From: an uncultured Chloroflexia bacterium
GTDB taxonomy: Bacteria > Chloroflexota > Limnocylindria > Limnocylindrales > CSP1-4
Length of the DNA: 64,000 nucleotides
Direction: 5' to 3'
Assembly: GCA_963771795.1 (NCBI GenBank)
Contig: CAVYUR010000006.1
Coordinates: forward strand, 737,661-801,660
Part shown: positions 36,731 to 55,564 of the stretch, piece by piece
Layout of the letters: every line of letters starts with the position of its first letter
Numbering within the stretch: position 1 is the stretch's first letter
Notes under the pieces: generated by a model
Told to the model about the DNA's origin: nothing
The model's database searches: none
The model's input: only the letters and a program-made list of their open reading frames with translations
Made by a program: the position numbers and the translations under genes

Positions 36731-37501
36731 TCAGCCTTGATTGACGAGCTCCGTCACGTGAACGAACTCGCCGGCGAGTGCAGCCTTTTCATCGTGGGTC
36801 AGGTCCAGCGACTCCGCCGCAGCCAGAGATGCTCGAGCCAGCTCACCATCCCCTGTCCGGACGGCCAACTCCGCGCGGTACAGGTAGGCCTTTGCGCGTT
36901 CTCCTGCTTCGGCAGCCTCCCCAAATCGGGTGAGACCGCTTTCGAGCGTCTTCAGGGCCAGTGCCTCGTCGCCGTGGGCATCTCCCAAGCGCGTGGCGAC
37001 GTAGACGATCTGGGCCAGTCCTTCCGCCTTCTCCGCCGAATCTTCCTCTTCGGACTCGCCAAGCTTGGAGATTCGCAGCCAGTTGCCGCCCGGGTCAACG
37101 ACACTGAATCCGCGCACAGTGCCATACTTCTTCCGCGGTCGGGTGATGCGTGGGATGCCAGCGACCGGCAGCTTGCCATGCGCCTTCCGCAGTCCGGCAG
37201 CAAAGTCGCGATAGAGGCCGTCGGGGTCCGGTACGACGACGATCGCCGTGCCATACGAGTCGGCGGGATCGAAGGCTTCGATGCCGAAGAGATGGATGTG
37301 GATGTCTTCGAGGGCTACGACCGCGTACGGGTTGGGACGGACTTGTCGGTACGTCCTCTTGAACCCGATGGATTCGTAGAACGTGACCGATTCATCGATG
37401 TCTGCGCAGGGTAGGCAGGGGTACGTGCGTTCGTTCGCCAATCGAGGCTCCGGATGAACGGGAATTGGCTCCGGCGGGCGGGAGCCCGCCGTGTACTCCA
37501 T
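36731..37501 (-). CDS. VOC (glyoxalase/bleomycin-resistance fold) domain protein with a helical C-terminal extension
   Basis: From ATG 37501: VOC-like core (YPCLPCADIDESVTFYESIGFKRTY...FSVVDPGGNWLRI), followed by a TPR-like helical tail. The upstream part of ORF 36731..38029 is rejected. Confidence 0.7.
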   Translation of the reverse strand: MEYTAGSRPPEPIPVHPEPRLANERTYPCLPCADIDESVTFYESIGFKRTYRQVRPNPYAVVALEDIHIHLFGIEAFDPADSYGTAIVVVPDPDGLYRDFAAGLRKAHGKLPVAGIPRITRPRKKYGTVRGFSVVDPGGNWLRISKLGESEEEDSAEKAEGLAQIVYVATRLGDAHGDEALALKTLESGLTRFGEAAEAGERAKAYLYRAELAVRTGDGELARASLAAAESLDLTHDEKAALAGEFVHVTELVNQG

Positions 37502-37707
37502 GCGCGAGGAGCGGCGCCGACCGAGATCATCCTCCCCTACCCGATTCGGCCGCGCCCGAGCCTGTCCAGCACCGTCCTCGAATGCGGCCAGTGCCACGAG
37601 GTGGTTGAACGGACGTCGCCCGTTCAACGACGTTGCCCAGCGTGCCGCAGGGTGATTGAACGGGCCCGAAGTCGAGAGGCGATGCGTCGTCGCCGGGCCA
37701 GCGAATA

Positions 37708-38366
37708 CTAGGCGAAGCGGCGCCAGTTCCAGAAATGTCGTGCGGTCGCCGATATCTCGCGCTTCTCGACGAGAGCAGTTCGCTCGGCCGTCTCGAACGC
37801 CAGCATGTCGCCAGCGAGAACGGCGAGTTCCTCGAGCGCGACTGGGGCCGCCACAAGGTAGGACCCAAACCCGGGCTCCTCGTCGAAGTCCGGCGACGGC
37901 CAGCCGACGTAGCCTTCCGCCCAGACAACGGTCGCGACCCTTCGTTCTCCATCGGCGCCATGCCACGCCCCCGCTCGTTGTGGATCCGGGGACCAGTCGA
38001 GACTCGCGGCGCTGCCGGGTTGATGGCAATCCAGCGTTCCTTGGTGGTCATGAAACGTACGCCCCCGTAGTTAAGTAGGGTCAGAGACCCGTCCGGATCG
38101 CCACGGCTCGGATAGGCGCTGAGCGAGACCATTGTTTCGGTAAAGAGGTTCTCCTGCCCGGCCGCAATGGCCCCCGCCGAGGCAGCAGGGACCAACGTCC
38201 GCCTGCGCTCTTCGGTTGGGCGTTCCCACTCCAGTCGGCGTATCACGGAGTACTCGGCAATCACGACGCCCCGCGTCGTTGTCGGAAGCGGACGCTCTTC
38301 GATGCGAAGGTCGGAAACCCAATCGTCAGGGGAGACTCGAGAGTCGCGGGGTCGAACTGGTTCCAT
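37708..38366 (-). CDS. Hypothetical protein, 19 nt downstream of the STAND gene, reading frame broken near 38000
   Basis: The frame of ORF 37527..38369 is protein-like only down to ...TKERWIAINPAAPRVS. A start-less open frame then continues as LDWSPDPQRAGAWHGADGERRVATVVWAEGYVGWPSPDFDEEPGFGSYLVAAPVALEELAVLAGDMLAFETAERTALVEKREISATARHFWNWRRFA, ending at TAG 37708-37710. No family recognised. Confidence 0.45.
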
Positions 38367-38385
38367 CAACCACGGTGGCCGCTGA

Positions 38386-41300
38386 TCAAGCGAGAACGTG
38401 TCCAGGATCGGATTCCGTCCAACGGAAGCGCTCTTCTAGAGCGCTGGCGTCATCGGCTGCGATGTAGCCGTGATCGAGGAGCTCCGCCGCGACTCGGCCC
38501 AAGGCCATGCGGACGCCGTAGGCGCGCGGGCGCACGTACGGAAGTCGAAGGCTGATGTCATCCAAGTTCGCCATGAGAGCGGACTCGTGACCTTCGTCGA
38601 GTGTTTGGCCGAAACCAATCGCACGCATTAGTTCGACAACCCGCAACGCGATCGTCGCCCGCGACAGGCCGGCCAACCGCGAGAGGATTGCTATCTCCCC
38701 CTCGAAGCCCCCGGTGATGTCGGCAGCCTCGTTGGTCGCGACGAGAGGCCGCCCATCTTCGGGCAGGAGTCGCGGGCGAATCAGCCGTCGGCTGGCTGAC
38801 GGTGGGACGGCGATGCGGTAGGTGGCAGGCACCTCTGTGGCGGGCTGCGCCGGCGCAAGGTCGTTCGAGTCCGCGCCGAGCAAGCGCAACGCCCCGAGGC
38901 GGACATCGAGACTTGGTGATCGTCGCAACTCATCCAGGGTCTCGCGGAATGGAGCGATTCTCTCGGGACTGCTCTCGCGGACGATCTCCAGGACCGTGAT
39001 CGCCAACGTCGTCTGGATCGGGTTGCTGATCAGCAGCTCGGACACGGTCGCGATTGCTGCGGGCGCCCCAGTTGCCACCTCTTCCGCCAAGGACTCCCGC
39101 GTGAGTTGGGCAAGAAGCGCCACTGGATGATCCAGCCATTGGCCCGCCAAATCGGCGAGCACTTGATCCGGCGTCCGGCGCGCTAGTCCCTGGAATGTGG
39201 GCTCTGGGCGTTCACGCGAGAGCTCCAGGAGGCCCTCGAGGTAGGGCCCGAGCGCTGCCCAGACCTCCCGATCTACGCTACTCGCCGTAAGGTGCGGCAG
39301 GACATCTTCAAGGCTTCGCATCAAAGCGGAGCCATCGATGGCCCCGGATCCAATGTCGAGGGCGAGCGTCTCACGAGCGAGGTCCCGAGCACGAACCTCG
39401 TCGATCTGGCGTAGAAGGTCGAGCGTCTCCAGTACTGACCCGTCATCCCAGTTGCGGTCCCACCCGTGCGGATTGCGCCGCTCCAGGGACGCCTCGGCGA
39501 GTGCGGCAGCCGCACGGTGGTGGCCGCGAGCCAAGAGAGTGTCCCCCGCAACGGTCAAGGCGACTGATGGCCCAGCCGGGAGTCGTTCTCGCAGCGAGCG
39601 CAGTTCCTCGTCGGTCGCCTCCCCCAGGAACGGCGCCATTCGGCGTCGGATCGCCCGCGAGGATGGGAAGCGCTCCGCGGCGAGGGACTCAACGAGCTCG
39701 TCGAACGTCCGAGGTTCGGCGTCTTCCGTGGGACGGGTGATGGGCGAGCCTTCGTCGACCGGCTCCGCTGGCGGGATCATCGCCTCGAGGAAGTTAACTG
39801 GGAGCATGCCATTCGGCGTCGTGCCCTCGAGGAGCTCAGCGGCCCATGCGCGCCGCGTCGCTCGGCGCCCATAGGGAATGAGCCGATCAGCCAGGAAGCT
39901 TGCGGCTTGGCTGGTGCCCGCGGCCGCTAGCCGTTGTGCCATCGTTCGCGCCAGCTCGCTGCTGGCCTCGCGCTCGAACGGGATGACCCAAGCGCTCGCG
40001 TAGCGTGCGACGCTGTCGACGGCAGCGCCAGCGTCGAGGGCGGCTGCCAAAATCGTGGCCGCGCCGCCGGCGAACGTCAGCGCGCCCCGCGCCGAGAGCC
40101 ACTCGACCAGCTCCATGGCCCACGATGGCTCGGAGCGGAACGCAATTCGCACGATGTTCCTGGCCGCGAGCTCGGTGGCACGGCCCTCCGTCGTCTCGTC
40201 GAGGTCCGGCAGCGCTGCGGCAATCACAGCGATCCGGGCTGCCGCGTCATCCGGCTCGAGTCGATTGACTCGATCGAGCCAGGCCAACCACCACTCGAGC
40301 TGGTAATCCTTGCGATACCCGACGCTGAAACTCGTCCGAAGCGCCCGGTCGACAAACTCGCTGGCAACGTCGGTGTCGCCGAACACGAGGCGGGCCTGCG
40401 CCCGTTCGACCCACGTCAGGAATCGGGAGTTCGCGTCGGGCGGAGCCTCAGCCTCCTCGAGCCGCTCGAGCCAGGACCGCAACCTCGTCTGGTACGGTCC
40501 CGCTTGGACGAAGGACACGAGGATCGCCCGTCGCAGCTCCTCGGACCAGAAGAGCGTTGGTCGCCGCCACTCTTCCTCGAACACGTCGAGCAACATGTCG
40601 AGATGGGCAGTCCCGTGCCTCGCTGTCAACGTAACGAGCGCCTCATGCGCTTCGCGGCGGATGCCTGAGAGTTCGTAGCTCTCGTGAGAAGGCCGATCGG
40701 GCCTCGGCAGGAACGCTCGCAGCACTGCGAGCGCGAGCTCCTGGAACGTCCAGACGCTCAGGCTATGCGTGACCGCCGTACCTGCCACGCGCCCCAGGAG
40801 AAAGACGACCCTGCCAATCCGCTCGTCCACCCTGGCTCCCAGGAGCGGGACCACATCCTCGAGGGCAGGCGTCTCACCGACCGCAAAGCGGAGAGCGATC
40901 CACGAAATCCATGGGTAATACGGGCCAAGGCCCTCGTTGCCGAAGCGAAGCTCGACCTCGCCTGGTGGCTGGAGCCCGGACGCCACTTCGGCGGCATGAG
41001 GATTGCCAGCGGCCACAAGCTCCAACGCCAGGGCATATCCGACATCAGTCGGGACACCAGCCGGCCAGATGTCGGACATTGCCTCATCGAGAACGTCGCG
41101 TGCGGCCTGAGTATCTCCATCCAGTCGATGGTGGCGGGCTGCCTGCACGAGAACCTGCGCGCGAACTGCGCGCTCTGGATCGACGTCCGTTCTGAGTCGG
41201 CGCGTCAGTCTCAGACTTCCATGGATATCTCCACGAGCGATTAACTCGTCTGCTGCCGCCGCTGAGAATGCGGGCACGAGAGCCGCTCGATCAGGATCTC

Positions 41301-43023
41301 CGCGCCCAACCTCGGCGACCATTTCCTCGAGTCGCTCGATGGGCACCAAGTAGGCGGCAGTTCGGCTCCATTTTCGAAGACCAGGCGGCAGACGATGCCC
41401 GTCGGCTGGGTCGTTTCGATCCGAGGGAAAGCCCATCGAGTCGAAGATTTCCCGCGCCGCGTCGTCGTAGCCCGCACGCGCCAGAGCCAGAGCCGCCTCG
41501 CGATCAACGTCTTCCTGCGACCCGACCCTCGCGGGCTGTCGGGCGTATTCGATGACACTGGCAGCGTCGCCGAGTCGGGCGAGCACTCGCACGAGGGGCT
41601 CTCTCTCGATAATGTTACCGCGCTGCTCAAGCTCAGAGTCAACGAGCAACAGTCGGACCAGATCACCAATCCGCCGGCGACGAACGGCTACCGCCGCGAG
41701 AAGTCGGACATCGCGAACGATCGCCTCTGGAGGTCGTCGCCTTATGTACTGCTCTCGGAAGTAGTCATAGCTCGCAAGGCTCAAGGCCCCTTCCTCGTTG
41801 CCCGCCATGAGACGGTGATAGAGGAGATCGGGGGAGCCAGGTTCGCCCTCACGCCATGCCGCGAGTCGCTGGTGGCATGCCACGTCGTCTAGGTGTGTCC
41901 GATCGACAATGAACTGCCGAAAACTGTCGTGGAAGAAGGTCCAGCGGTGCGCCGTGGGGCGGCGGAAGTAGTGCCCAACGCGCTCGGCGATGCGGGTGGC
42001 CAAGCCTGGTGCGTTGAGGTGCGCGACCAGGGACGGGACATCGATTGGCCCACGGATTCGCGCGAGCAGCGCCAGGGCGTCCGCCACGTCGCGCTCTTCC
42101 GACAGCGTCGTCCAATACGCTAAGTAATGGCTGGCAAGGTCGCCTGCGTATGGGGGAAACGAGGCGAGCCTTCTGTCTCGCTCGTCGATGGTCGGCACGC
42201 CGGCGAGATATCGCAGGGCGTAGGTCAGTGAAAGGGGATGACCCCCCACGAGATCCTTGATGCGCTCCGCCTGTCGATCGGCTAGCGGCGGATCCAGGCC
42301 CCAGGCGTCGATGACCTCCTGAACCCGAGCCGCGTCCAGCTGGCCCAGTTCGATCCGTCGATCCGTCTCCGAGACCTGCTGGCGAACAGTCGCGGGCATT
42401 GCATCAAGGTCGGTCGTCTGCGACCCGAGAAGGACCAAGACGCCTCGTGGTATCTCGTGTGCTTCTGGGAGCTCAGCGAGAAGTGGGCGGTCCGGAACCG
42501 GCTGCCTCGCGGTGTGGTCGAGACCATCGATGAGGAAGATGGTTCGGCTTCCGGTTTCCTCGAAGTGCTGGCCAATCTGACGGAGTTGGTGGCGGAGCTC
42601 CTCCCGTAGCCACTGCGGATCATCCCGAGGAAGCCGACGCGAACGGAAACCGAGGCGACGAAGATCGACAACCAGGTCGTTGAGAAGCGCCACGGCTTCC
42701 CCGCGCGCGGCCCCCGCCGTGTCGCCGGGAACGAAGGCGTAGTACCTGATCACCTGCTCACGCCGAACGCGAAGCGCCTCCGTCAGGAGCGAACTCTTCC
42801 CGGTGCCCGGGGGACCGACAACGGCCGCGTAGCCATGGATTCCGCTGCCAAGCAAGGTCTCGAGACGAGAGCGTGCATCTCGTGGAGCGCGGTAGACCCG
42901 GGCGTCCACTGGGAACTCGTGTCGGTGTCGTTGGCGGTAGAGATGCGCCCAACCAAGCCGCTCGAGCAACTCGTCGCGGGACAGCTCAACGATCCGAGCG
43001 GGCGATGCCACGGTCTGCCACAA
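38386..43023 (-). CDS. STAND-class P-loop NTPase (NB-ARC/NACHT-like) with a ~1,000-aa helical C-terminal region; main body of an Avs-like gene
   Basis: Walker A VVGPPGTGKSS (about 42793-42816), Walker B IFLIDGLDH (about 42514-42540), GxP-type motif GGHPLSLTYAL (about 42226-42246), FHDSFRQF winged-helix-like block. The rest is long Leu/Ala/Arg-rich helical sequence. 1,545 codons are uninterrupted. Confidence 0.85.
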   Translation of the reverse strand: MWQTVASPARIVELSRDELLERLGWAHLYRQRHRHEFPVDARVYRAPRDARSRLETLLGSGIHGYAAVVGPPGTGKSSLLTEALRVRREQVIRYYAFVPGDTAGAARGEAVALLNDLVVDLRRLGFRSRRLPRDDPQWLREELRHQLRQIGQHFEETGSRTIFLIDGLDHTARQPVPDRPLLAELPEAHEIPRGVLVLLGSQTTDLDAMPATVRQQVSETDRRIELGQLDAARVQEVIDAWGLDPPLADRQAERIKDLVGGHPLSLTYALRYLAGVPTIDERDRRLASFPPYAGDLASHYLAYWTTLSEERDVADALALLARIRGPIDVPSLVAHLNAPGLATRIAERVGHYFRRPTAHRWTFFHDSFRQFIVDRTHLDDVACHQRLAAWREGEPGSPDLLYHRLMAGNEEGALSLASYDYFREQYIRRRPPEAIVRDVRLLAAVAVRRRRIGDLVRLLLVDSELEQRGNIIEREPLVRVLARLGDAASVIEYARQPARVGSQEDVDREAALALARAGYDDAAREIFDSMGFPSDRNDPADGHRLPPGLRKWSRTAAYLVPIERLEEMVAEVGRGDPDRAALVPAFSAAAADELIARGDIHGSLRLTRRLRTDVDPERAVRAQVLVQAARHHRLDGDTQAARDVLDEAMSDIWPAGVPTDVGYALALELVAAGNPHAAEVASGLQPPGEVELRFGNEGLGPYYPWISWIALRFAVGETPALEDVVPLLGARVDERIGRVVFLLGRVAGTAVTHSLSVWTFQELALAVLRAFLPRPDRPSHESYELSGIRREAHEALVTLTARHGTAHLDMLLDVFEEEWRRPTLFWSEELRRAILVSFVQAGPYQTRLRSWLERLEEAEAPPDANSRFLTWVERAQARLVFGDTDVASEFVDRALRTSFSVGYRKDYQLEWWLAWLDRVNRLEPDDAAARIAVIAAALPDLDETTEGRATELAARNIVRIAFRSEPSWAMELVEWLSARGALTFAGGAATILAAALDAGAAVDSVARYASAWVIPFEREASSELARTMAQRLAAAGTSQAASFLADRLIPYGRRATRRAWAAELLEGTTPNGMLPVNFLEAMIPPAEPVDEGSPITRPTEDAEPRTFDELVESLAAERFPSSRAIRRRMAPFLGEATDEELRSLRERLPAGPSVALTVAGDTLLARGHHRAAAALAEASLERRNPHGWDRNWDDGSVLETLDLLRQIDEVRARDLARETLALDIGSGAIDGSALMRSLEDVLPHLTASSVDREVWAALGPYLEGLLELSRERPEPTFQGLARRTPDQVLADLAGQWLDHPVALLAQLTRESLAEEVATGAPAAIATVSELLISNPIQTTLAITVLEIVRESSPERIAPFRETLDELRRSPSLDVRLGALRLLGADSNDLAPAQPATEVPATYRIAVPPSASRRLIRPRLLPEDGRPLVATNEAADITGGFEGEIAILSRLAGLSRATIALRVVELMRAIGFGQTLDEGHESALMANLDDISLRLPYVRPRAYGVRMALGRVAAELLDHGYIAADDASALEERFRWTESDPGHVLA

Positions 43024-43674
43024 AAGCGTGGCGACGTCGGTTGCCCGATCGGGAGTCCACCGGATCCGCTTGCGAAGGGTGAGCGCTCGATCGCGAAGCC
43101 GAACTCAAGTTCGCAAGAAGCGACGAAGTCGTCGAATTCGTCGGGGTTAAGGCCAGTAGCCACGATGCAGTTGTCCCAGGCCTGACCCCAGTTGCTGGCT
43201 GCATCCGGCCGTCCATTCGCCCGAAGCGGCCATACCTCGCGTGCGAAGCGCTCGAGCGAACCCGACCCGGGATCGGCGACCGATGGATAGTCATTGGTGA
43301 TCAGGTGCACCACAACTCGACGATCTGGGTTCTGAGACCGAAGCCTCTGCCAGCCATCGGCGAGCTGTGCGAGGAGACCCGGCGACTGGTCGTCCGCGTC
43401 GAGGATTCGCCCCCAAGAGGTCGAAGCTGGCGTCCTCGACCACTTGACCTGGTATCCATCGAGTCGACCCCGGGGTCAGGACCTGCAAATCGTCGACGCG
43501 CCCCGCTGTGGGATCGGCGAGGCGAATGGCCTCAAGGTCCGCGTCCAGGGCGTCGAGGATCAGGACGCCGGCGACGGTGTACTGCGCGGCATAACCCGCG
43601 ACGGCACGGCGCTCGCCCTCGGCCGGTGGAGTGGGCGGGCGACGCGGCGTCGGGCGAGGCACGGGCTGGGTCAT
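43024..43674 (-). CDS. 5' portion of the same gene in two other frames: PD-(D/E)xK (Cap4/DUF4297-like) nuclease domain
   Basis: From ATG 43674: MTQPV...RRAVAGYAAQYTVAGVLILDALDADLEAIRLADPTAGRVDDLQVLTPG. After a frame change at the CCCCGGGG run (about 43463-43475) it continues RLDGYQVKWSRT...RRVVVHLITNDYPSVADPGSGSLERFAREVW...FVASCELEFGFAIERSP. A second frame change at about 43050-43075 joins it to the NTPase frame. G-aromatic-x-x-Q, DD and QxK form a restriction-endonuclease-fold pattern. Confidence 0.55.
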
Positions 43675-43846
43675 AGCTCGCAGACGACGGCGATCATCGT
43701 CGAGATCCGCCTCCAATGGGTCGCGCGCGGGCCATTGAACACGATCCTGGCGCACCTCCGTGACACCTTACCTGTCGCGGCCCTGGAGCGAGAGTGCCTT
43801 CGCCGGATGCGTCGCTGCTTGGTAGTCGGCCCAGATACACGCAGAC

Positions 43847-44077
43847 GTGAGGGCGCATTCGCGGGCTAACCCGTCCGCGCACGCGCTCGAGCTGCTAGTC
43901 CGAGGTGACGAGTGGCACTCGCTGCCGCACATCGCCGGAGCCGAGCTTCAGCGAGCATTGGAGCTCTTGCGTGTTGCTGATGCAACCACGCGCGCTGTCG
44001 TCCGGAGGACGGTCGACGTGCTCGGCGAGCAGGGTTTTCTCCAATATCGAGAACTGTTGCCGGCCACCGACGAGTAG
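43847..44077 (+). CDS. Possible small hypothetical protein
   Basis: 76-codon ORF with protein-like composition (LLVRGDEWHSLPHIAGAELQRALELLRVADATTRAVV...). No motif and no clear RBS. Confidence 0.2.
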   Translation: MRAHSRANPSAHALELLVRGDEWHSLPHIAGAELQRALELLRVADATTRAVVRRTVDVLGEQGFLQYRELLPATDE

Positions 44078-44079
44078 CG

Positions 44080-44346
44080 CTAATCACCCTTTGGACGGAG
44101 CCAGCCAAATAGGGTTCGCACCAGCGAGCGCTGTCCCCGGCCGGCGGAGTTTGCGTGGATCTCATCCTCGGCCCAGTTGCGAGCCCACGCGACGCGATTG
44201 GCGGACAGCTCGGGCTGTTTGCCGCGCAGTCTGCCCTTGGCTCGTGCGACCGCGGCTCGATTGCGGCTGGTGACAGCGTTCTTACCAACACCCCAGAGAC
44301 GGCGGCGGCCTTCGGGAGTGAGGGGAGCGTTCGCGTGGGTAGACAT
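44080..44346 (-). mobile_element. IS481-like transposase N-terminal HTH remnant
   Basis: The 88-codon ORF begins MSTHANAPLTPEGRRRL, the characteristic IS481-family N-terminus (M.HANA.LTP.GR). No DDE catalytic domain follows and there is only ~320 nt before the next feature. Confidence 0.4.
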
Positions 44347-44688
44347 AGCTGCTCGCGCTCACGTCGTGGCTGGGTGTCTACCCGCACCTCGCTCGGGTTT
44401 TGTATGCCGTGCATGCTCTCAGAGGCCACCGACACCTCGTGTCGCAGAAGGTAGTCGAGTCCCGGGGTGAGTCCGTGCGCTGGCTGCCCAGTTGACGAGC
44501 CCGCGGCAAGGTCCGCGTCATCGGAGCCCCCGTCATGGGGAAGGGATCGCAGGCTTGCAGATCGCGTTCGCGCCAACACGCGGCGAGACTCCGGAACTCA
44601 GGAGTCGCCGCTCACCGACCGATGCTGACGTGGCCGATGGGCCTGCGTTCCGAAGCGACCCACGGTCGCGACCTGATCAGTCGACGGG

Positions 44689-45504
44689 TTACTGGTTGAA
44701 GAACGTCTTCAGTACACGGGCCATGAGTTCGGGGGCGACGACGTGTCCCTGCCCGTCGAGCGTGTGTCGTTCGGTCTGGGGGATGGCAGCGGTTATCGCT
44801 TTCGCGGCGCGGTCGAAGAAGTCGGTCGGGAGGCCTGCCAACTGGGGCTCGGTGATCGGACCCTCGGTGGTCACCAGGACCGACTGAGTGATGCGGGCAA
44901 GTCGGTTCGTGGGGATCTTGTAGCCATTGAGGACCACGGCGTCCTTGACGAGCGTGTGGGCGAGCGCGACGGACGAGGCCCAGAGCGGGTGCTGTTTGTC
45001 AGCCGCGATGTCCGCGTCGGGTCCGCCGGTAAGCCTCATGAACAGTTCCAGGAGCTCCTCGTCCCGGCCGGCTTTGTATGCCTCGTGGGTGTCCGCGAGG
45101 TACTGGTTGAACCTCGGCCACAGGTCGTCCCCGATCACGTACGGCACATCCCACACCGCGATCTTGTCGATCGCCGAACCTGCCGCTGCTGCCTCCAGCG
45201 CGAGGGCGCCGCCAGATGAGGCGCCGTACACGTGAGCTGAGCCGCCGGCTGTCGCAATCAGCGCGTCGAGGTCTTCCACCTCCCGCGCCACGGCGTACGG
45301 CGGTGTATTGCCGCTGGCGCCCCGGCCGCGTCGTGCGTAATTGTAGACCGTGAAATGGTTGGCAAGGAGCCGGGCCAGCGGCGCGTTCTCAGCGCCGTCG
45401 TCTAGGGTGCCGCCGACGAGGATCACCGCCGGGCCAGTGCCTTTCCGGTCGTAGGCGATCCTCGTACCGTCGGCGGACGTCACACGAAGTGTCATCTCGT
45501 TCAC
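44689..45504 (-). CDS. Alpha/beta hydrolase
   Basis: RIAYDRKGTGPAVILVGG, nucleophile elbow GASSGG. GTG 45504 follows GGAGAG. Confidence 0.85.
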   Translation of the reverse strand: MNEMTLRVTSADGTRIAYDRKGTGPAVILVGGTLDDGAENAPLARLLANHFTVYNYARRGRGASGNTPPYAVAREVEDLDALIATAGGSAHVYGASSGGALALEAAAAGSAIDKIAVWDVPYVIGDDLWPRFNQYLADTHEAYKAGRDEELLELFMRLTGGPDADIAADKQHPLWASSVALAHTLVKDAVVLNGYKIPTNRLARITQSVLVTTEGPITEPQLAGLPTDFFDRAAKAITAAIPQTERHTLDGQGHVVAPELMARVLKTFFNQ

Positions 45505-47123: not shown

Positions 47124-47295
47124 CGCGGCTGAACTTAGGGCGGTGCTGTGACAGCTTGGCTGGCACGAGGTGTCGACGACTCCAGCCTCTCGCGTTGGAA
47201 CGCGTAGTCGCTGCGCATCGCGCTGGTAGAGGCAACGGCTCAGGTCGCGGTAGACTCGGGTGGCCCGATAGGGCAACAGACTCATCCGGTCTTGC

Positions 47296-47581: not shown

Positions 47582-48985
47582 ATGGCAGTGAAAAAGATCC
47601 CGGCCGGCTCGAATGGCATCGTCTACGTGCGAGTCTCGACCGAACACCAAGCCAGCGACGAGTTGCCAATCGCCAGCCAGGTCGCTGAGCTCACGGCGGC
47701 CGTCGAGCGGGCCGGGGCAACCTGCGATGTCGTTCAGGACGCCGGCATCAGTGGGACCGACCTCGAGGGGAGGCAGGTCTCCAGTCGATCATCTCTCGTG
47801 CGCGAGATGGCGGGCCGAGCTTCTCGTGGGTGCTCGTCTGGAAGTTCAAGTCGGCTTCGCCCGGAACATGGAGGAGGGCCTGGTCTATCGCGCCCTCCTG
47901 CGCAAGCGCGGCATCGACATCCTCTCCTACAAGGAGCCGGTGCCAGAAGGCCCACTCGGGTCATTGATCACGCATATCCTCATGGCGGTCGACGAGTTCT
48001 ATGCGGCCGCTGACGGCCGCCGATGTGCTCCGGTCCCAGAAGGAAGCCGGCCCGGCAGGGCTTCTCGGCGGGCGGCCGCCGCGCCCGTGAGGCTACCGGC
48101 GGGAGCCGGTCGTGATCGGCGCACGGTACGACGGGACGCCGCTGACACGCGTGCGTTGGGTGCCGGACCGGAGACGGCCCCCAAGGTGGTCCAGGCGTTC
48201 CAGATGGCGGCCGAAGGCGTGACCTACGACGAGATCGTCGCCGCAACCGGCATCTGCGAGAACAAGTCCAGCCTGGCCACCATCCTCGCCAACCCGATCT
48301 ATCGCGGCGTTCGCGTCTTCAACCGTGAGGCGCGAGTCGAGGGCGAGCACGGCCGCAAGCGGCGGCGGAACCCGGCCGAGGACGTCGTGACCAGCGACGT
48401 CGAAGCCGTCGTTCCCGAGCAGCTCTGGACGAGGGTGCAGGAGATGCTGGTCCGCCGCCGGAAGGATCGGTTGGCGCCGCAGCGCTACGCGGGCGGCTAC
48501 GTGCTGACGGAGCTGCTCCGGTGCGCATGCGGGTCAAGGATGGTGGGCACGAGCAATCGGTCATACCGCTACTACCGCTGCAAGGCGCGCTGCGGTCGAC
48601 CAAGCGTGCGGGCGAACGACCTGGATCTCGGCGTCATGCACCTGATCCGCCGGACCCTGGTGACCCCAAAGGCTGTCCTCGGGAAGTACTTCTCCGTTTG
48701 CTCAACGAGGACATCGAGATGCGCGCCGAGCGACGTGCGCCCGATCTCGATGAGGCGAAGGCGCGAATTCGCAAACTCCAGCAGGAAGACGCCAACTCTG
48801 CGTCGTGCTCTTCGCAGCGCCGGCCCAGAGCTGCCGAGCGGATCAACGTCGAGATGGAGGCGGTTGCGGCCGAGCTTGAAGCGGCTCAGGCGCGAATTGC
48901 CGAGCTTGACCAAGCGGAGCGGCCACTCCGGATCACAACGAGGCTCGTTCGGCAGACGATCGACGACATGAACGACTATCCTTGA
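47582..48985 (+). pseudogene. Large serine recombinase, split over at least three frames
   Basis: ATG 47582 after GAGGGGG. Resolvase-type catalytic N-terminus IVYVRVSTEHQ...IASQ. The resolvase end and recombinase domain (FARNMEEGLVYRALL..., ANPIYRGV..., zinc-ribbon CACGSRMVG...YYRCKARC) are in ORF 47613..48971, and the coiled-coil tail (AVAAELEAAQARIAELDQ) is in ORF 48521..48985. Further protein-like sequence (ATRVAWVRDLFERIDVD) continues to about 49100 in yet another frame. Confidence 0.8.
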
Positions 48986-49133
48986 CCGACGCGCCGTTGG
49001 CGACACGCGTGGCGTGGGTCCGAGACTTGTTCGAGCGGATCGACGTCGACAGTCCGCGACGAGAAGGCTGTCGCCGTCTGGAGGGCCGCGACCGACGAGG
49101 GTGTTAACCGGTCTAATTCCTTCGGTATACGAG

Positions 49134-49208
49134 TGGCTCCGGCGGTAGGACTCGAACCTACGACCAAGCGGTTAACAGCCGCCCGCTCTACCACTGAGCT
49201 ACGCCGGA
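49134..49208 (-). tRNA. tRNA-Asn (anticodon GTT), CCA encoded
   Basis: Minus-strand cloverleaf: acceptor TCCGGCG/CGCCGGA, D arm GCTC-AGTGGTA-GAGC, anticodon arm GGCGG-CTGTTAA-CCGCT, T arm GTAGG-TTCGAGT-CCTAC, discriminator G, CCA. Confidence 0.93.
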
Positions 49209-51890: not shown

Positions 51891-53625
51891 CTACTCCAGG
51901 TAGTCCTTGAGCTTCCTCGATCGCGACGGGTGGCGCAGCTTGCGGAGCGCCTTCGCCTCGATCTGGCGGATCCGCTCGCGGGTCACGTTGAACTCCTTGC
52001 CGACCTCCTCGAGCGTCCGGGCGCGCCCGTCCTCGAGGCCGAACCGGAGCTGGAGCACGCGCCGCTCGCGGCCGGTCAGCGAGTCGAGCACCGCCTCGAC
52101 CTGCTCCTTGAGCAGCTGGTGCGACGCGGCCTCGGCCGGGGCCAGGGCGCCCCGGTCCTCGATGAAGTCGCCGAGGTGGGAGTCCTCTTCCTCGCCGATC
52201 GGGGTCTCGAGCGAGACCGGCTCCTGCGAGACCTTGATGATCTCGCGGACCTTCTCGGGCGTGACCTGGACCTCCTGGCCCTTCGACATCGCCTCGGCGA
52301 TCTCCTCGACCGTCGGCTCGCGGCCCAGCTCCTGGAGGAGCTGGCGCGAGACGCGGATCAGCCGGTTGATCGTCTCCACCATGTGGACCGGGATCCGGAT
52401 CGTCCGGGCCTGGTCGGCGATCGCGCGGGTGATGGCCTGGCGGATCCACCACGTGGCGTACGTCGAGAACTTGAAGCCCTTCTCGTAGTCGAACTTCTCG
52501 ACCGCGCGGATCAGGCCGATGTTGCCTTCCTGGATCAGGTCGAGGAACGACATCCCGCGGCCGATGTACTTCTTCGCGATCGATACGACGAGCCGCAGGT
52601 TCGCCGAGGTCAGCTGCTCGCGCGCGTCGCGCCCGATCCGCACCAGCTCGCCCTTGCGGTGCGCCAGCTTCGTGTTGAGCGGGACCTCCGGGTCGAACCC
52701 GAGCCGCTTCAGCAGCTCGGCGTCGTTGCCGGACGTGATCCAGCGCTCGAGCGCCGGGATAGGCGACCTCGTCGCGCGACCAGTCGTAGATCGCCCGGAG
52801 CCCGACGTTGTCGCGCGAGTCGAGGTCGCCGTTGTGGACGGCGAAGTACGCCCAGTCGAGGAGCGTGAGGAACGATGTCCGGGTCGAGCTTCTCGTTGTA
52901 GGTCGTGGACGAGCTTCTTGGCCTCCTTGAGCAGCGTCCTTGGTGCCGTCGGACTGGGCGTCCTTGCCGGCCTTGAACGAGGTGGAAGTCGGGCGTCGGC
53001 GACGAGCAGCTCGGCGGCGGCCTGGGTCCGCGATGGCGTCGCGGACGAGCTTGTGCGCCTCGTCGCCGAACGGCAGCCGGTGCTGCGTGCTTCGTGCGTC
53101 CGGGTCTTGCGCTCCGTGTCGTGGAGCGTCCACTCGTGGAGCGAGACGATCCCCTTCCACGGCGCCTCGACGAGCTGCTCGCCGAGCTCGATCGCCTTGG
53201 CCAGGACGACCTCTTCCTCGGCGGTCAGCAGGGCGACCTTGCCGATCTCCTTGAGGTACATCCGGACCGGGTCGTCGATCCCGATCATGTCGGCCGAGAT
53301 CGCCTCGAGCTCCTCGGCGGTCGGCTCCTCGACCTCCGCCGGGTCGAGCTTGGCCGGGGCGTCGAGCGGCAGCTTGTTGTCGACCGCTTCGCCGTTCTCG
53401 CCGACGACCTCGACGCCGACGTCCGGCGCCGTCCGACGTCGTCGCTGCCGAGAGCGAGATCCTCGTCGTCGTCCTCGTCATCGTCGTCTTCGACCTTCGG
53501 CAGTACGACCTTCGCCGCCCGACAGGCCGCGAGTCGCGAGCTTGGCCTCCTCGACGTCGGCGCGGGCGCGCCGGGGACGGGTCAGGACGGCTTCGACAAG
53601 CTGCTTGTCAAGCGGATCGCGGCAT
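51891..53625 (-). CDS. rpoD: Primary sigma factor (sigma-70 group 1), reading frame repeatedly broken in this assembly
   Basis: Regions 1.2 and 2-4 are intact in ORF 51891..53288 ([102 protein letters not shown]). The non-conserved insert (about 52740-53110) and the acidic N-terminus (53290-53625) alternate between frames. Confidence 0.9.
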
Positions 53626-53638
53626 GGGTGCCTCCGTG

Positions 53639-55564
53639 TCATGCGCGGACCAACACTGTGGCTTGCTCGATCTGCCGGTCGACGGATCGACGGGCTTCGT
53701 TGTTCTGGAGTTGGAGGTCGACGAGCTGGCCGACGGTCTCCCGATCGCCGCGCGCCTCCGCGGCGAGCAGCTCGCCGCCGACCCAATCGGCGCGCTCGTC
53801 GAGCTGTCGTCGCTCGAGCTGCGAGCAGGCACCGATCGACGGCGTACATGATTCGCTCGGACGCCACGAGCGCGAGGTCCGGTGACGGTTGCGCGAGGAT
53901 CGCCTGGGCGGGTGCCCGGGTCTCGTCGTCGAGGCGCGGCCATGCAGCGCCGACATCGAGAACGGCGGTCGGACCCCGTGGTCGTCGGGCGCGCGCTGGA
54001 GGACGATCGCCCGGAACAGCTCGCGGGCCGGCGTCGATGGGCAGCTGGTCGGGGCCGAGCTCGTCGGCGACGCGAGGCTGCTGATCCGGGGCGAGCAGCA
54101 GGAGGCGGAGCAGCTCCTCCTCGACCGGCGAGATCGCGGCGAGGATCCGGTCGATCGGCAGCGCGTCGGCAGACGCGAGGACGGCGTCCGCGGTGATCCG
54201 CCCCTCGGCGGATGCGCCACCCGGCGCCGGCCGGCGGTGGAGGACCTCCAGCACGGACGCGCTCCTCGACCCCGGACACGTTGTGGATCTGCTGGAGGTA
54301 GGCGTCGCGCATCACCGGGTTCGGGATCGCCCGGAGCGTCGGTGCGATCGCGTCGACGAAGCGGGCCTTGCCGCCGGGCGTCTTGAGGTCGACCTGTCGG
54401 CGTGGAAGTCGATGAGGTAGTCGACGATCGGCTCGGCGGTCCGGACCTCCTCGCGCCAACGATCGGGCGTCTCGCGAACGACCTCGTCGGGATCCTTGCC
54501 GTCGGGCAGGCGGACGACGCGGACCTCGTCGAGCTCGACGCCGGTGTCGGCGGCCGCCAGCTGGCCGATCAGCGACTCGAGCGCCTGCGCCCCGAACGTG
54601 CCCGCCTTCTCGCCGGCCGCGTCGACGTCGTAGGCGAGCGCGATCTTCTTCGCGTAGCGGGTGAGCAGCGCCGACCTGGCCCGGGCGTCAGCGCCGTCCC
54701 GAGCGACGCGACGACGTTGTCGAAGCCGGCCTGGTGGGCCATCAGCGCGTCCGTGTAGCCCTCGACGATCACCGCCTGGCTCGACTTGCGGATCGGGCCC
54801 TTCGCCTTGTCGATGAGATAGAGCGTCCGGCTCTTGTCGAACAGCGGCGTCGCCGGAGAGTTGAGGTACTTCGGACCGTGGTCCGCCCCGTCGTCGGCCG
54901 CCGCGGCGAGGATTCGCCCGCCGAGCCCGACCGGCGAGCCCGTTCGGCGTCGCGGATCGGGAAGATGACCCGTTCGCGGAAGCGGTCGTAGACGCCGCCT
55001 CGGCTCGACTGGCGCGGCTGCGCGAGGCCGACCTCGACGAGCTCGTCCGGGCGGACGTTCCGCTTCGCGGCGAGCTGGCGGGTCAGCGTGTCCCAGCCGC
55101 CCGGCGCGTAGCCGAGCTGATGCCTGGCGATCGTCTCGTCGGTGAAGCCGCGGCCGCGGAGGTAGTCGAGAGCCGCTTCGCCGGTCTTCGAACCGGTGAG
55201 GACGGCGTGGTAGAAGGCGATCGCGCTCTCCATGACGTCGCGGAGACGCTTCTTGTGGGCGTCCTCGCGGGTCGTCCGCTCGTCCAGCTCGACGCCGGCC
55301 TTCGTGGCGAGGGCCTTGAGTGCCTCCGGGAACGTCAGCGCTGTCGCGCTTCATGACGAAGCTGAAGATGTCGCCGCCTTCGCCGCAACCGAAGCACTTC
55401 CAGGAGTCGCGCGCAGGGGTGACCGTGAACGACGGGGTCTTCTCGCCGTGGAAGGGGCAGAGACCCTTGTAGGTGGTGCCGGCCTTCTTCAGCTGGACCG
55501 ACTCACCGACGACGTCGACGACGCTGAGCTTGTTCTTGACCTCGGCTGCAACGCCGACCGCCAA
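53639..55564 (-). CDS. dnaG: DNA primase, reading frame repeatedly broken in this assembly
   Basis: TTG 55564 after GGGAGG. Zinc ribbon CPFHGEKTPSFTVTPARDSWKCFGCGEGGD, then LTFPEALKALA...MESAIAFYH in a second frame. The TOPRIM block AVIVEGYTDALMAHQAGFDNVVASLGTALT is back in the first frame, and C-terminal pieces lie in ORFs 53608..54459, 53478..54254 and 53639..54220. At least five frame changes. Confidence 0.88.

Follow-up and report, generated by a model that had tools for sequence, protein, structure and literature searches.

Do the consecutive minus-strand open reading frames (ORFs) found in one region of the genome of an uncultured Chloroflexia bacterium make up a single gene and, if so, what would its protein do and is the gene still intact? 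The region lies in a stretch of 64,000 nucleotides (nt), hereafter the window, which comes from a 1.49-Mb contig of a metagenome-assembled genome (GenBank GCA_963771795.1, contig CAVYUR010000006.1, positions 737,661 to 801,660), and all coordinates given here are positions within the window. As assembled, three ORFs that abut one another and use two frames (43755-43291, 43313-42783 and 43023-38386) are followed by a fourth (38369-37527). An initial annotation, made from the sequence alone, joined the first three into one gene of ~1,760 codons ending at 38386, read its product as a candidate antiviral STAND (Avs) protein with an N-terminal nuclease, a STAND nucleoside triphosphatase (NTPase) and a long sensor, and took the fourth ORF for a coupled downstream gene. 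Our comparisons argue for a single, larger gene: the minus strand from 43674 to 37708 very probably constitutes one gene, for a protein of ~2,000 amino acids (aa) of the Avs kind. We would class the protein as an Avs of the Avs1/Avs3 group that is encoded by one gene, its fused Cap4 nuclease standing in place of a protease and metallo-beta-lactamase (MBL) effector pair.

Extent of the gene and domains of its protein

The extent of the gene is given by its closest intact homologue, a 1,988-aa protein (P0001, encoded on contig L001; 92% identical) that was retrieved from a protein collection with the hand-repaired 1,762-aa product of the first gene model. In a tblastn comparison P0001 is colinear with the window over 43674..37711, exactly 5,964 nt, and at the DNA level the window and L001 are 92.4% identical across 6.4 kb with only four gaps, of one base each (Table 1). 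All four insertions or deletions (indels) are private to the window, in that an intact homologue on contig L035 and a partial one on contig L030 match L001 wherever they cover the sites. The two frame changes recognised at the outset are both real, that at 43468 in the place given for it and the other at ~43044, just below the 43050-43075 first proposed, and two more exist, at 38414 and ~38011. The extra A at 38414 produces the false stop at 38386, beyond which the gene continues to 37708. The proposal of a single large gene thus stands, with four breaks and 1,988 codons, and the corrected gene model leaves no separate partner gene. An in-frame GTG at 43755 is an alternative start that would add 27 codons and give 2,015.

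Once the four indels are corrected, the ORF holds no internal stops and its product is 92-93% identical to three intact homologues (P0001, P0254 and P0266). Across a 60-member family alignment 51 residues are invariant, and the repaired protein keeps every one; at the nearly invariant positions it deviates at 10 of 117, and intact P0001 deviates at nine of those ten. Window-private substitutions comprise 133 synonymous versus 65 non-synonymous changes. On these counts the gene is under purifying selection, with a constraint at least as strong as that on the branches leading to intact copies. Frame tracking by G+C content at third codon positions was too insensitive within the gene to map the frameshifts.

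Table 1. Coordinates of the Avs-type gene, its predicted domains and motifs, the frame breaks, and features of the surrounding DNA
Feature	Position	Strand	Details and basis
Whole Avs-type gene (very probably one gene)	37708..43674	-	ATG 43674; TAG 37710-37708; 1,988 codons after correction of four 1-nt indels
Cap4-type PD-(D/E)xK nuclease domain (predicted)	42889..43626	-	aa ~17-262; AlphaFold2, Foldseek and conserved residues
Motif GYAAQY	43596-43579	-	
Motif VDD	within 43500-43480	-	D61/D62 at 43494-43489
Motif (DG)YQVKW	43460-43440	-	D72-x2-Q75-x-K77 at 43460-43443
Motif VVVHLITNDYPS	43316-43281	-	
STAND NTPase	41605..42873	-	aa ~268-690; Avs1b models of PADLOC and NCBIfam
Walker A, GPPGTGKS	42816-42793	-	
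Walker B, IFLIDGLDH	42540-42514	-	
Motif GGHPLSL	42246-42226	-	
Motif FFHDSFRQF	41937-41911	-	
Helical, tetratricopeptide repeat (TPR)-like sensor region (putative)	38443..41604	-	aa ~691-1744; profile-profile alignment with the Avs1b family
Beta-rich C-terminal domain	37711..38442	-	aa 1745-1988; AlphaFold2 and Foldseek; the 'downstream gene' of the initial annotation
Frame break 1	43468	-	extra G, CCCCGGG -> CCCCGGGG; between the DD and D..QxK motifs; not in L001 or L035
Frame break 2	~43044 (43044..43045)	-	one base (A) missing; relatives have CGGAGCG
Frame break 3	38414 (38413..38414)	-	extra A, GGACGGATCC -> GGACGGAATCC; not in L001, L035 or L030
Frame break 4	~38011 (38011..38012)	-	one T missing, GGCAGTCGCC -> GGCAGCGCC
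DNA shared with relatives in otherwise differing contexts	37460..43871	-	blastn: L001 43871..37460, L035 43775..37466, L030 38507..37476
tRNA-Asn	49134-49208	-	5.4 kb from the Avs gene
Large serine recombinase	47582-49000 (~47.5-49.0 kb)	+	split across frames; adjoins tRNA-Asn

The protein shows the three-part build of Avs proteins, with a Cap4-type N-terminal effector, a STAND NTPase with a Walker A and a Walker B motif, and a C-terminal sensor of ~1,300 aa; the motifs that had been quoted for it were all found on the minus strand at the locations given. The NTPase is matched by the Avs1b models of PADLOC (E 1.1e-28) and NCBIfam (E 1e-24), which bears out the STAND assignment and the Avs-like architecture first proposed, and Pfam matches to this domain (AAA_16, AAA_22 and NACHT) are all sub-threshold. 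Its invariant residues are G287, G290, G292, K293, S294, D383, D386 and H387. To examine the sensor, we used an Avs1b family profile that was gathered starting from the avs1abc locus annotated on pHG1 of Cupriavidus necator. Our family profile aligns with it in hhalign with probability 99.9 and E 4.5e-36 over 1,436 columns, positions 279-1836 of the former (profile A3) corresponding to 211-1768 of the 1,942 positions of Avs1b; in both families the match starts in the Walker A region and extends to where the helical region ends. The sensor, which had been thought to lack a recognisable repeat family and to be possibly new, is thus homologous to the AVAST type 1 (Avs1b) sensor over its whole helical length.

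How close, then, is the window protein to AVAST type 1? Avs1b, represented by avs1abc on pHG1 of C. necator H16 and by EpiAvs of Erwinia piriflorinigrans, is of like size (~1,940 versus ~2,000 aa), is colinearly homologous to the window family through the NTPase and the entire helical sensor, and is the best and essentially the only PADLOC and NCBIfam match of that family. The differences concern both ends of the protein and its partners. First, Avs1b has an N-terminal trypsin-like protease of its own, whereas the window family has a Cap4 nuclease, and the hhalign match begins at Avs1b position 211. Second, the last ~200 aa do not align. Third, the partners of Avs1b are an MBL nuclease encoded separately, Avs1a, and Avs1c, whereas the window family has no conserved ones; neighbouring avs1a or avs1c genes, present in C. 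necator, were found neither in the window nor in the homologue loci. The NCBIfam equivalog for Avs1b (NF041810) has a cut-off of 1,500 bits, which is not reached by the repaired window protein (86), a Proteus member (131) or a Pedobacter member (98). With a score far below the cut-off, no protease and neither avs1a nor avs1c, the window protein falls outside AVAST type 1 in the strict sense.

The N-terminal domain was identified by structure prediction. Its AlphaFold2 model (predicted local distance difference test, pLDDT, 88.4) has as its top Foldseek match in the PDB the Avs protein SeAvs3 (8dgc_A, E 3.4e-7, template modelling (TM) score 0.56) and further matches Cap4 (7yib, E 3.5e-6; 7yia, E 6.5e-6), LmuA (9hr5, E 2.7e-5) and HamA (8zue, E 3.8e-5). 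Cap4 (a CBASS effector), LmuA (Lamassu) and HamA (Hachiman) have in common with it the PD-(D/E)xK fold and the pattern G-x2-G-[YF]-x2-Q ... DD ... D-x2-Q-x-K; their nucleases are paired with SAVED, SMC-like or helicase partners, whereas that of the window is joined to a STAND NTPase. In a 37-sequence alignment of the window family the N-terminal pattern is GERRA-x2-GY-x2-QY ... RVDD ... D-x2-Q-x-K-W. Of its residues, D61, D62 and K77 do not vary within the family, at least 90% of sequences keep D72 and Q75, and the window has all five. Sequence profiles are silent: the isolated domain has no match in Pfam, PADLOC or NCBIfam, two N-terminal domains had no Pfam match even when E values up to 10 were admitted, and the Pfam Cap4/DUF4297 profile fails to detect it. 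The nuclease assignment of the initial annotation is therefore upheld by predicted structure and by the residues of the motif pattern, and the profile comparison that it had proposed as a check gave nothing. By fold and motifs, the domain is predicted to be a Cap4-type PD-(D/E)xK nuclease, with an activity predicted from that of its relatives.

The C-terminal domain, which is found as the C-terminus of the ~2,000-aa homologues, likewise has a well-scored model (pLDDT 92.3). Its only PDB matches at E <= 0.001 are the two SeAvs3 chains 8dgc_B and 8dgc_A (E ~1e-5, TM 0.43-0.46; the region of SeAvs3 that is matched is not reported by Foldseek), and the next match has E 0.07. The isolated domain has no Pfam, PADLOC or NCBIfam match, and its profile matches nothing among PDB sequences. 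A search of 1.84 billion representative sequences with that profile returned 981 clusters at 50% identity (E <= 0.001), many of them fragments; the best 150 matches are proteins of the same family only, with no link to other Avs families among them.

SeAvs3 (PDB 8DGC) is an Avs with a Cap4 nuclease and has the phage large terminase as its ligand. Its parts come in the same order as those of the window protein, and its length is similar (its chains have 2,004 and 2,028 residues). Binding of the large terminase leads SeAvs3 to form a tetramer and activates its nuclease. Our structural comparison covered the N-terminal and C-terminal domain models, of which SeAvs3 is the top match and the sole match at the above threshold, respectively. 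It was not found among PDB chains by phmmer or hmmsearch with P0001, a Salmonella plasmid member or the profiles A1, A2 and A3. Avs2 (EcAvs2; Avs2-trypsin-MBL), which we set beside the family by description, is also a terminase sensor; its TPR region leads into a beta-rich C-terminal sensor, which it has in common with SeAvs3 (PMC13601566; preprint 10.64898/2026.08.25.746987). It differs from the window family in being shorter (the Avs2-trypsin protomer is described to residue 1,461; 10.64898/2026.08.25.746987) and in its TPR architecture and effectors. The beta-rich 'C-terminal sensor' of EcAvs2 and SeAvs3 binds the ATPase of the terminase, Avs1 is described as structurally very similar to Avs3, and effector swapping has been reported for Avs2 (PMC13601566). 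In Erwinia, phage terminase acts as the trigger of the AVAST type 1 system (PMC12799240).

As the nearest relative in sequence (Avs1b) and the nearest relative in structure (SeAvs3) are both terminase sensors, a terminase-triggered mechanism would seem the most likely. The helical region and the C-terminal domain would bind a phage protein, most probably the large terminase; the ATP-bound NTPase would then oligomerise, SeAvs3 forming a tetramer; and oligomerisation would bring the Cap4 domains together to cut double-stranded DNA, leading to abortive infection. For the trigger itself we lean slightly towards the terminase. In this scheme the architecture and the homologies are what we observed, and the activation steps, with their ligand, oligomer and nuclease activity, would be those of the relatives. 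Such a mechanism would place the protein among well-studied phage-sensing immune receptors and requires nothing new.

Overall, a protein of the Avs1/Avs3 group with terminase-type sensing, encoded by a gene whose frame breaks are most likely assembly errors, is the best explanation and one that we hold with reasonable confidence. Several results weigh against it. Neither the N-terminal nor the C-terminal domain is named by any profile. The family profile retrieves no Avs from the PDB sequences, and the sole hint in searches of PDB chains is a weak match to HamA (E 0.21). The C-terminal profile gives no significant alignment to one Avs1b sequence or to the Avs1b family profile. Finally, the terminase-binding role that we infer for the C-terminal domain draws on Foldseek output in which the matched part of SeAvs3 is not given.

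Frame breaks: assembly error or decay

Are the four frame breaks real? We think it likely that they are metagenome assembly errors and that the gene is probably intact in the organism. The most telling evidence comes from the essential primase gene dnaG (53642-55564, minus strand), 10 kb away, in which at least six frame changes occur within 1.9 kb (through frames -1, -2, -1, -3, -2, -3 and -1). Its first three in-frame segments are 89-94% identical to intact primases; among its relatives, the named ones, at ~56-60% identity, are from Candidatus Limnocylindrales (Chloroflexota), and a JGI metagenome protein (P0469) is 89% identical across the in-frame quarter of the query. The rpoD gene (51894-53618), which lies beside dnaG in the canonical dnaG-rpoD arrangement, is in a single frame. 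A viable organism cannot carry such a dnaG, and the contig therefore holds clustered 1-nt indel errors; the same process explains the state of the Avs gene and of the large serine recombinase. With dnaG affected too, frameshifts are not confined to these two genes, a restriction that would have favoured real decay. Genes of this contig that look split or inactivated should accordingly not be taken as biology without the reads.

The alternative that survives best is that the frameshifts are real, making the Avs gene a pseudogene that lost its function very recently, within a mobile region that is decaying beside a degraded serine recombinase. We consider this unlikely, though it accounts for several observations that sit uneasily with assembly error. 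First, the extra G of break 1 recurs in a contig of an independent Logan assembly (L042, 1,093 nt, run ERR11593888) that is 100% identical to window 44154..43062 and carries the frameshifted 154-aa N-terminal ORF. The reads behind this contig may be the same ones, with the same systematic errors; the corresponding control, the frameshifted dnaG fragment, was not found in the Logan assembly. Second, eight neighbouring genes with Pfam matches have near-complete domain coverage in one frame and so appear intact, and the recombinase at 47.5-49.0 kb is, like the Avs gene, split across frames. Third, relics of the Avs gene in other genomes, in which 185 aa of the C-terminal domain stand alone, indicate that the gene does decay in nature. 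Inactivation is in turn hard to reconcile with the similar frame changes in dnaG, which cannot be biological, with the ratio of synonymous to non-synonymous private changes, in which selection is not relaxed, and with a repaired ORF that is free of stops and retains every invariant residue. We therefore favour assembly error.

Contig L042 ends at 43062, 18 nt before frame break 2, which may reflect heterogeneity among the reads.

Distribution of the family and further readings

The protein-collection search yielded more than 200 relatives, mostly of ~2,000-2,060 aa. Genome contigs searched with a profile gave 21 loci, and the same contigs searched with a single protein gave no match. Members are present in Acidobacteriota, Chloroflexota, Actinomycetota, Planctomycetota, Bacteroidota and Pseudomonadota, and full-length ones are carried on conjugative or large plasmids of Vibrio cholerae, Salmonella, E. 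coli, Klebsiella, Enterobacter, Rhizobium, Agrobacterium and Rhodococcus (hits H1-H15). The plasmid-borne members are annotated only as 'ATP-binding protein', the name given by the Prokaryotic Genome Annotation Pipeline (PGAP), or as 'hypothetical protein'. The family, which comprises at least several hundred clusters at 50% identity in many phyla and occurs on plasmids of clinical enterobacteria and Vibrio, is missed by current defence-system and NCBI naming models, to which it could be added; PADLOC and NCBIfam matches reach the NTPase and part of the sensor only. We raise only tentatively the further idea that it is a distinct, widespread Avs family not yet named by curated models, joining in one gene the NTPase and helical sensor of the Avs1 type to the Cap4 nuclease and C-terminal domain of the Avs3 type. 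If correct, it would link two terminase-sensing families, and the trigger in phages of Actinobacteria and Chloroflexota could differ from terminase.

No conserved partner gene is common to the homologue loci that we examined. The intact homologue on contig L035 (10001-15967; 1,988 aa, 92% identical) lies directly downstream of a BREX operon (L035 1-9854), the upstream genes being those for BrxC/PglY, a PglX-like methyltransferase, PglZ and BrxL together with a transposase fragment. Other homologues are found beside HipA/NERD or mobile-element genes, or amid housekeeping genes. Could the protein then be a regulator or signalling ATPase of the STAND type that merely resembles Avs? The many homologues with housekeeping neighbours, the generic, below-cut-off character of the Pfam matches and the uninformative PGAP name of the plasmid-borne members are all as such a protein would have it. 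Yet it would have to combine a Cap4-type nuclease, homology to Avs1b over a long range and a C-terminal domain that matches only SeAvs3, and to be spread patchily over distant phyla and plasmids with BREX, HipA/NERD and mobile-element genes among its neighbours. We consider a non-defence role very improbable.

Still more improbable is a two-gene system in which a nuclease-STAND-sensor protein of ~1,760 aa acts with a separate, coupled downstream gene. In the assembly ORF 37527-38369 is indeed separate, starting 17 nt past the stop at 38386. The split is due to a single extra A that is absent from L001, L035 and L030, and the sequence of the supposed second gene forms the C-terminus of one protein both in the close homologues and in the full-length relatives, of which there are more than 100; because the intact homologues are colinear, the two-gene system is refuted, and the 'downstream gene' is really this protein's own C-terminal domain. 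Scarcely credible, too, is that the four sites undergo programmed ribosomal frameshifting or phase variation. In its favour, the shifts alternate (+1, -1, +1, -1) and so restore the overall frame, an alternation that chance would give about once in eight; against it, long homopolymers and slippery sites are absent, stops follow each shift (43293-43291 and 38388-38386), and the shifts occur in no relative, the same pattern being seen in dnaG.

Two further observations concern individual homologues. The Salmonella member on plasmid pX1-88 (L040 3938-10003) is deposited as WP_072643907.1. In several metagenome contigs (L030-L034) only the last 185 aa of the C-terminal domain remain, as a lone ORF (e.g. 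L030 8001-8558; 95% identical in DNA to window 38507-37476), which lies between genes for a LuxR-type response regulator and an MBL-fold (Apyc1-like) protein, with SduA_C and integrase fragments nearby.

Genomic context in the window

The DNA that the window has in common with relatives in otherwise differing contexts ends at ~37460 and ~43871; what moves is therefore a cassette of this one gene. On one flank are an SRPBCC gene and a glyoxalase-family gene; on the other follow, in order, an unidentifiable remnant, an alpha/beta hydrolase gene, an HxlR regulator gene, the split large serine recombinase and tRNA-Asn. In the recombinase, Resolvase profile positions 2-51 of 145 are matched in one frame and the Recombinase and Zn_ribbon_recom domains in another, and further frame changes are visible by eye.

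Does this setting amount to a defence island, as the initial annotation had suggested? The tRNA and the serine recombinase on which that suggestion drew are indeed present, the latter split. The supposed insertion sequence (IS) remnant (43872-44688) has no Pfam match, and PADLOC finds no further defence gene near the Avs gene in the window. No convincing direct, att-like repeats marking an island at tRNA-Asn were found, and a promoter and terminator scan and an Rfam search added nothing beyond the tRNA. The defence-island reading for the window is therefore weak. A PADLOC match to MzaA (51891-53477, minus strand, E 1.9e-71) is really the housekeeping sigma factor gene rpoD, with Pfam regions 1.2, 2, 3 and 4.

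The remnant at 43872-44688 may be of resolvase type rather than an IS: its sole DNA match among plasmids is that of a 52-nt segment (44202-44253, 85%) to acetic acid bacterial genes annotated as 'recombinase family protein'. A 127-nt stretch (47148-47274) is 100% identical to L001 1-127, against 92% for the Avs genes of the two. Its distance upstream of the cassette is 3.3 kb in the window and 1.1 kb in L001; Rfam gives no match to it, nor Pfam to the ORF that overlaps it. The G+C content of the window is ~67%, and its hydrolase (44689-45504) belongs to a 90%-identity cluster that includes Nocardia brasiliensis.

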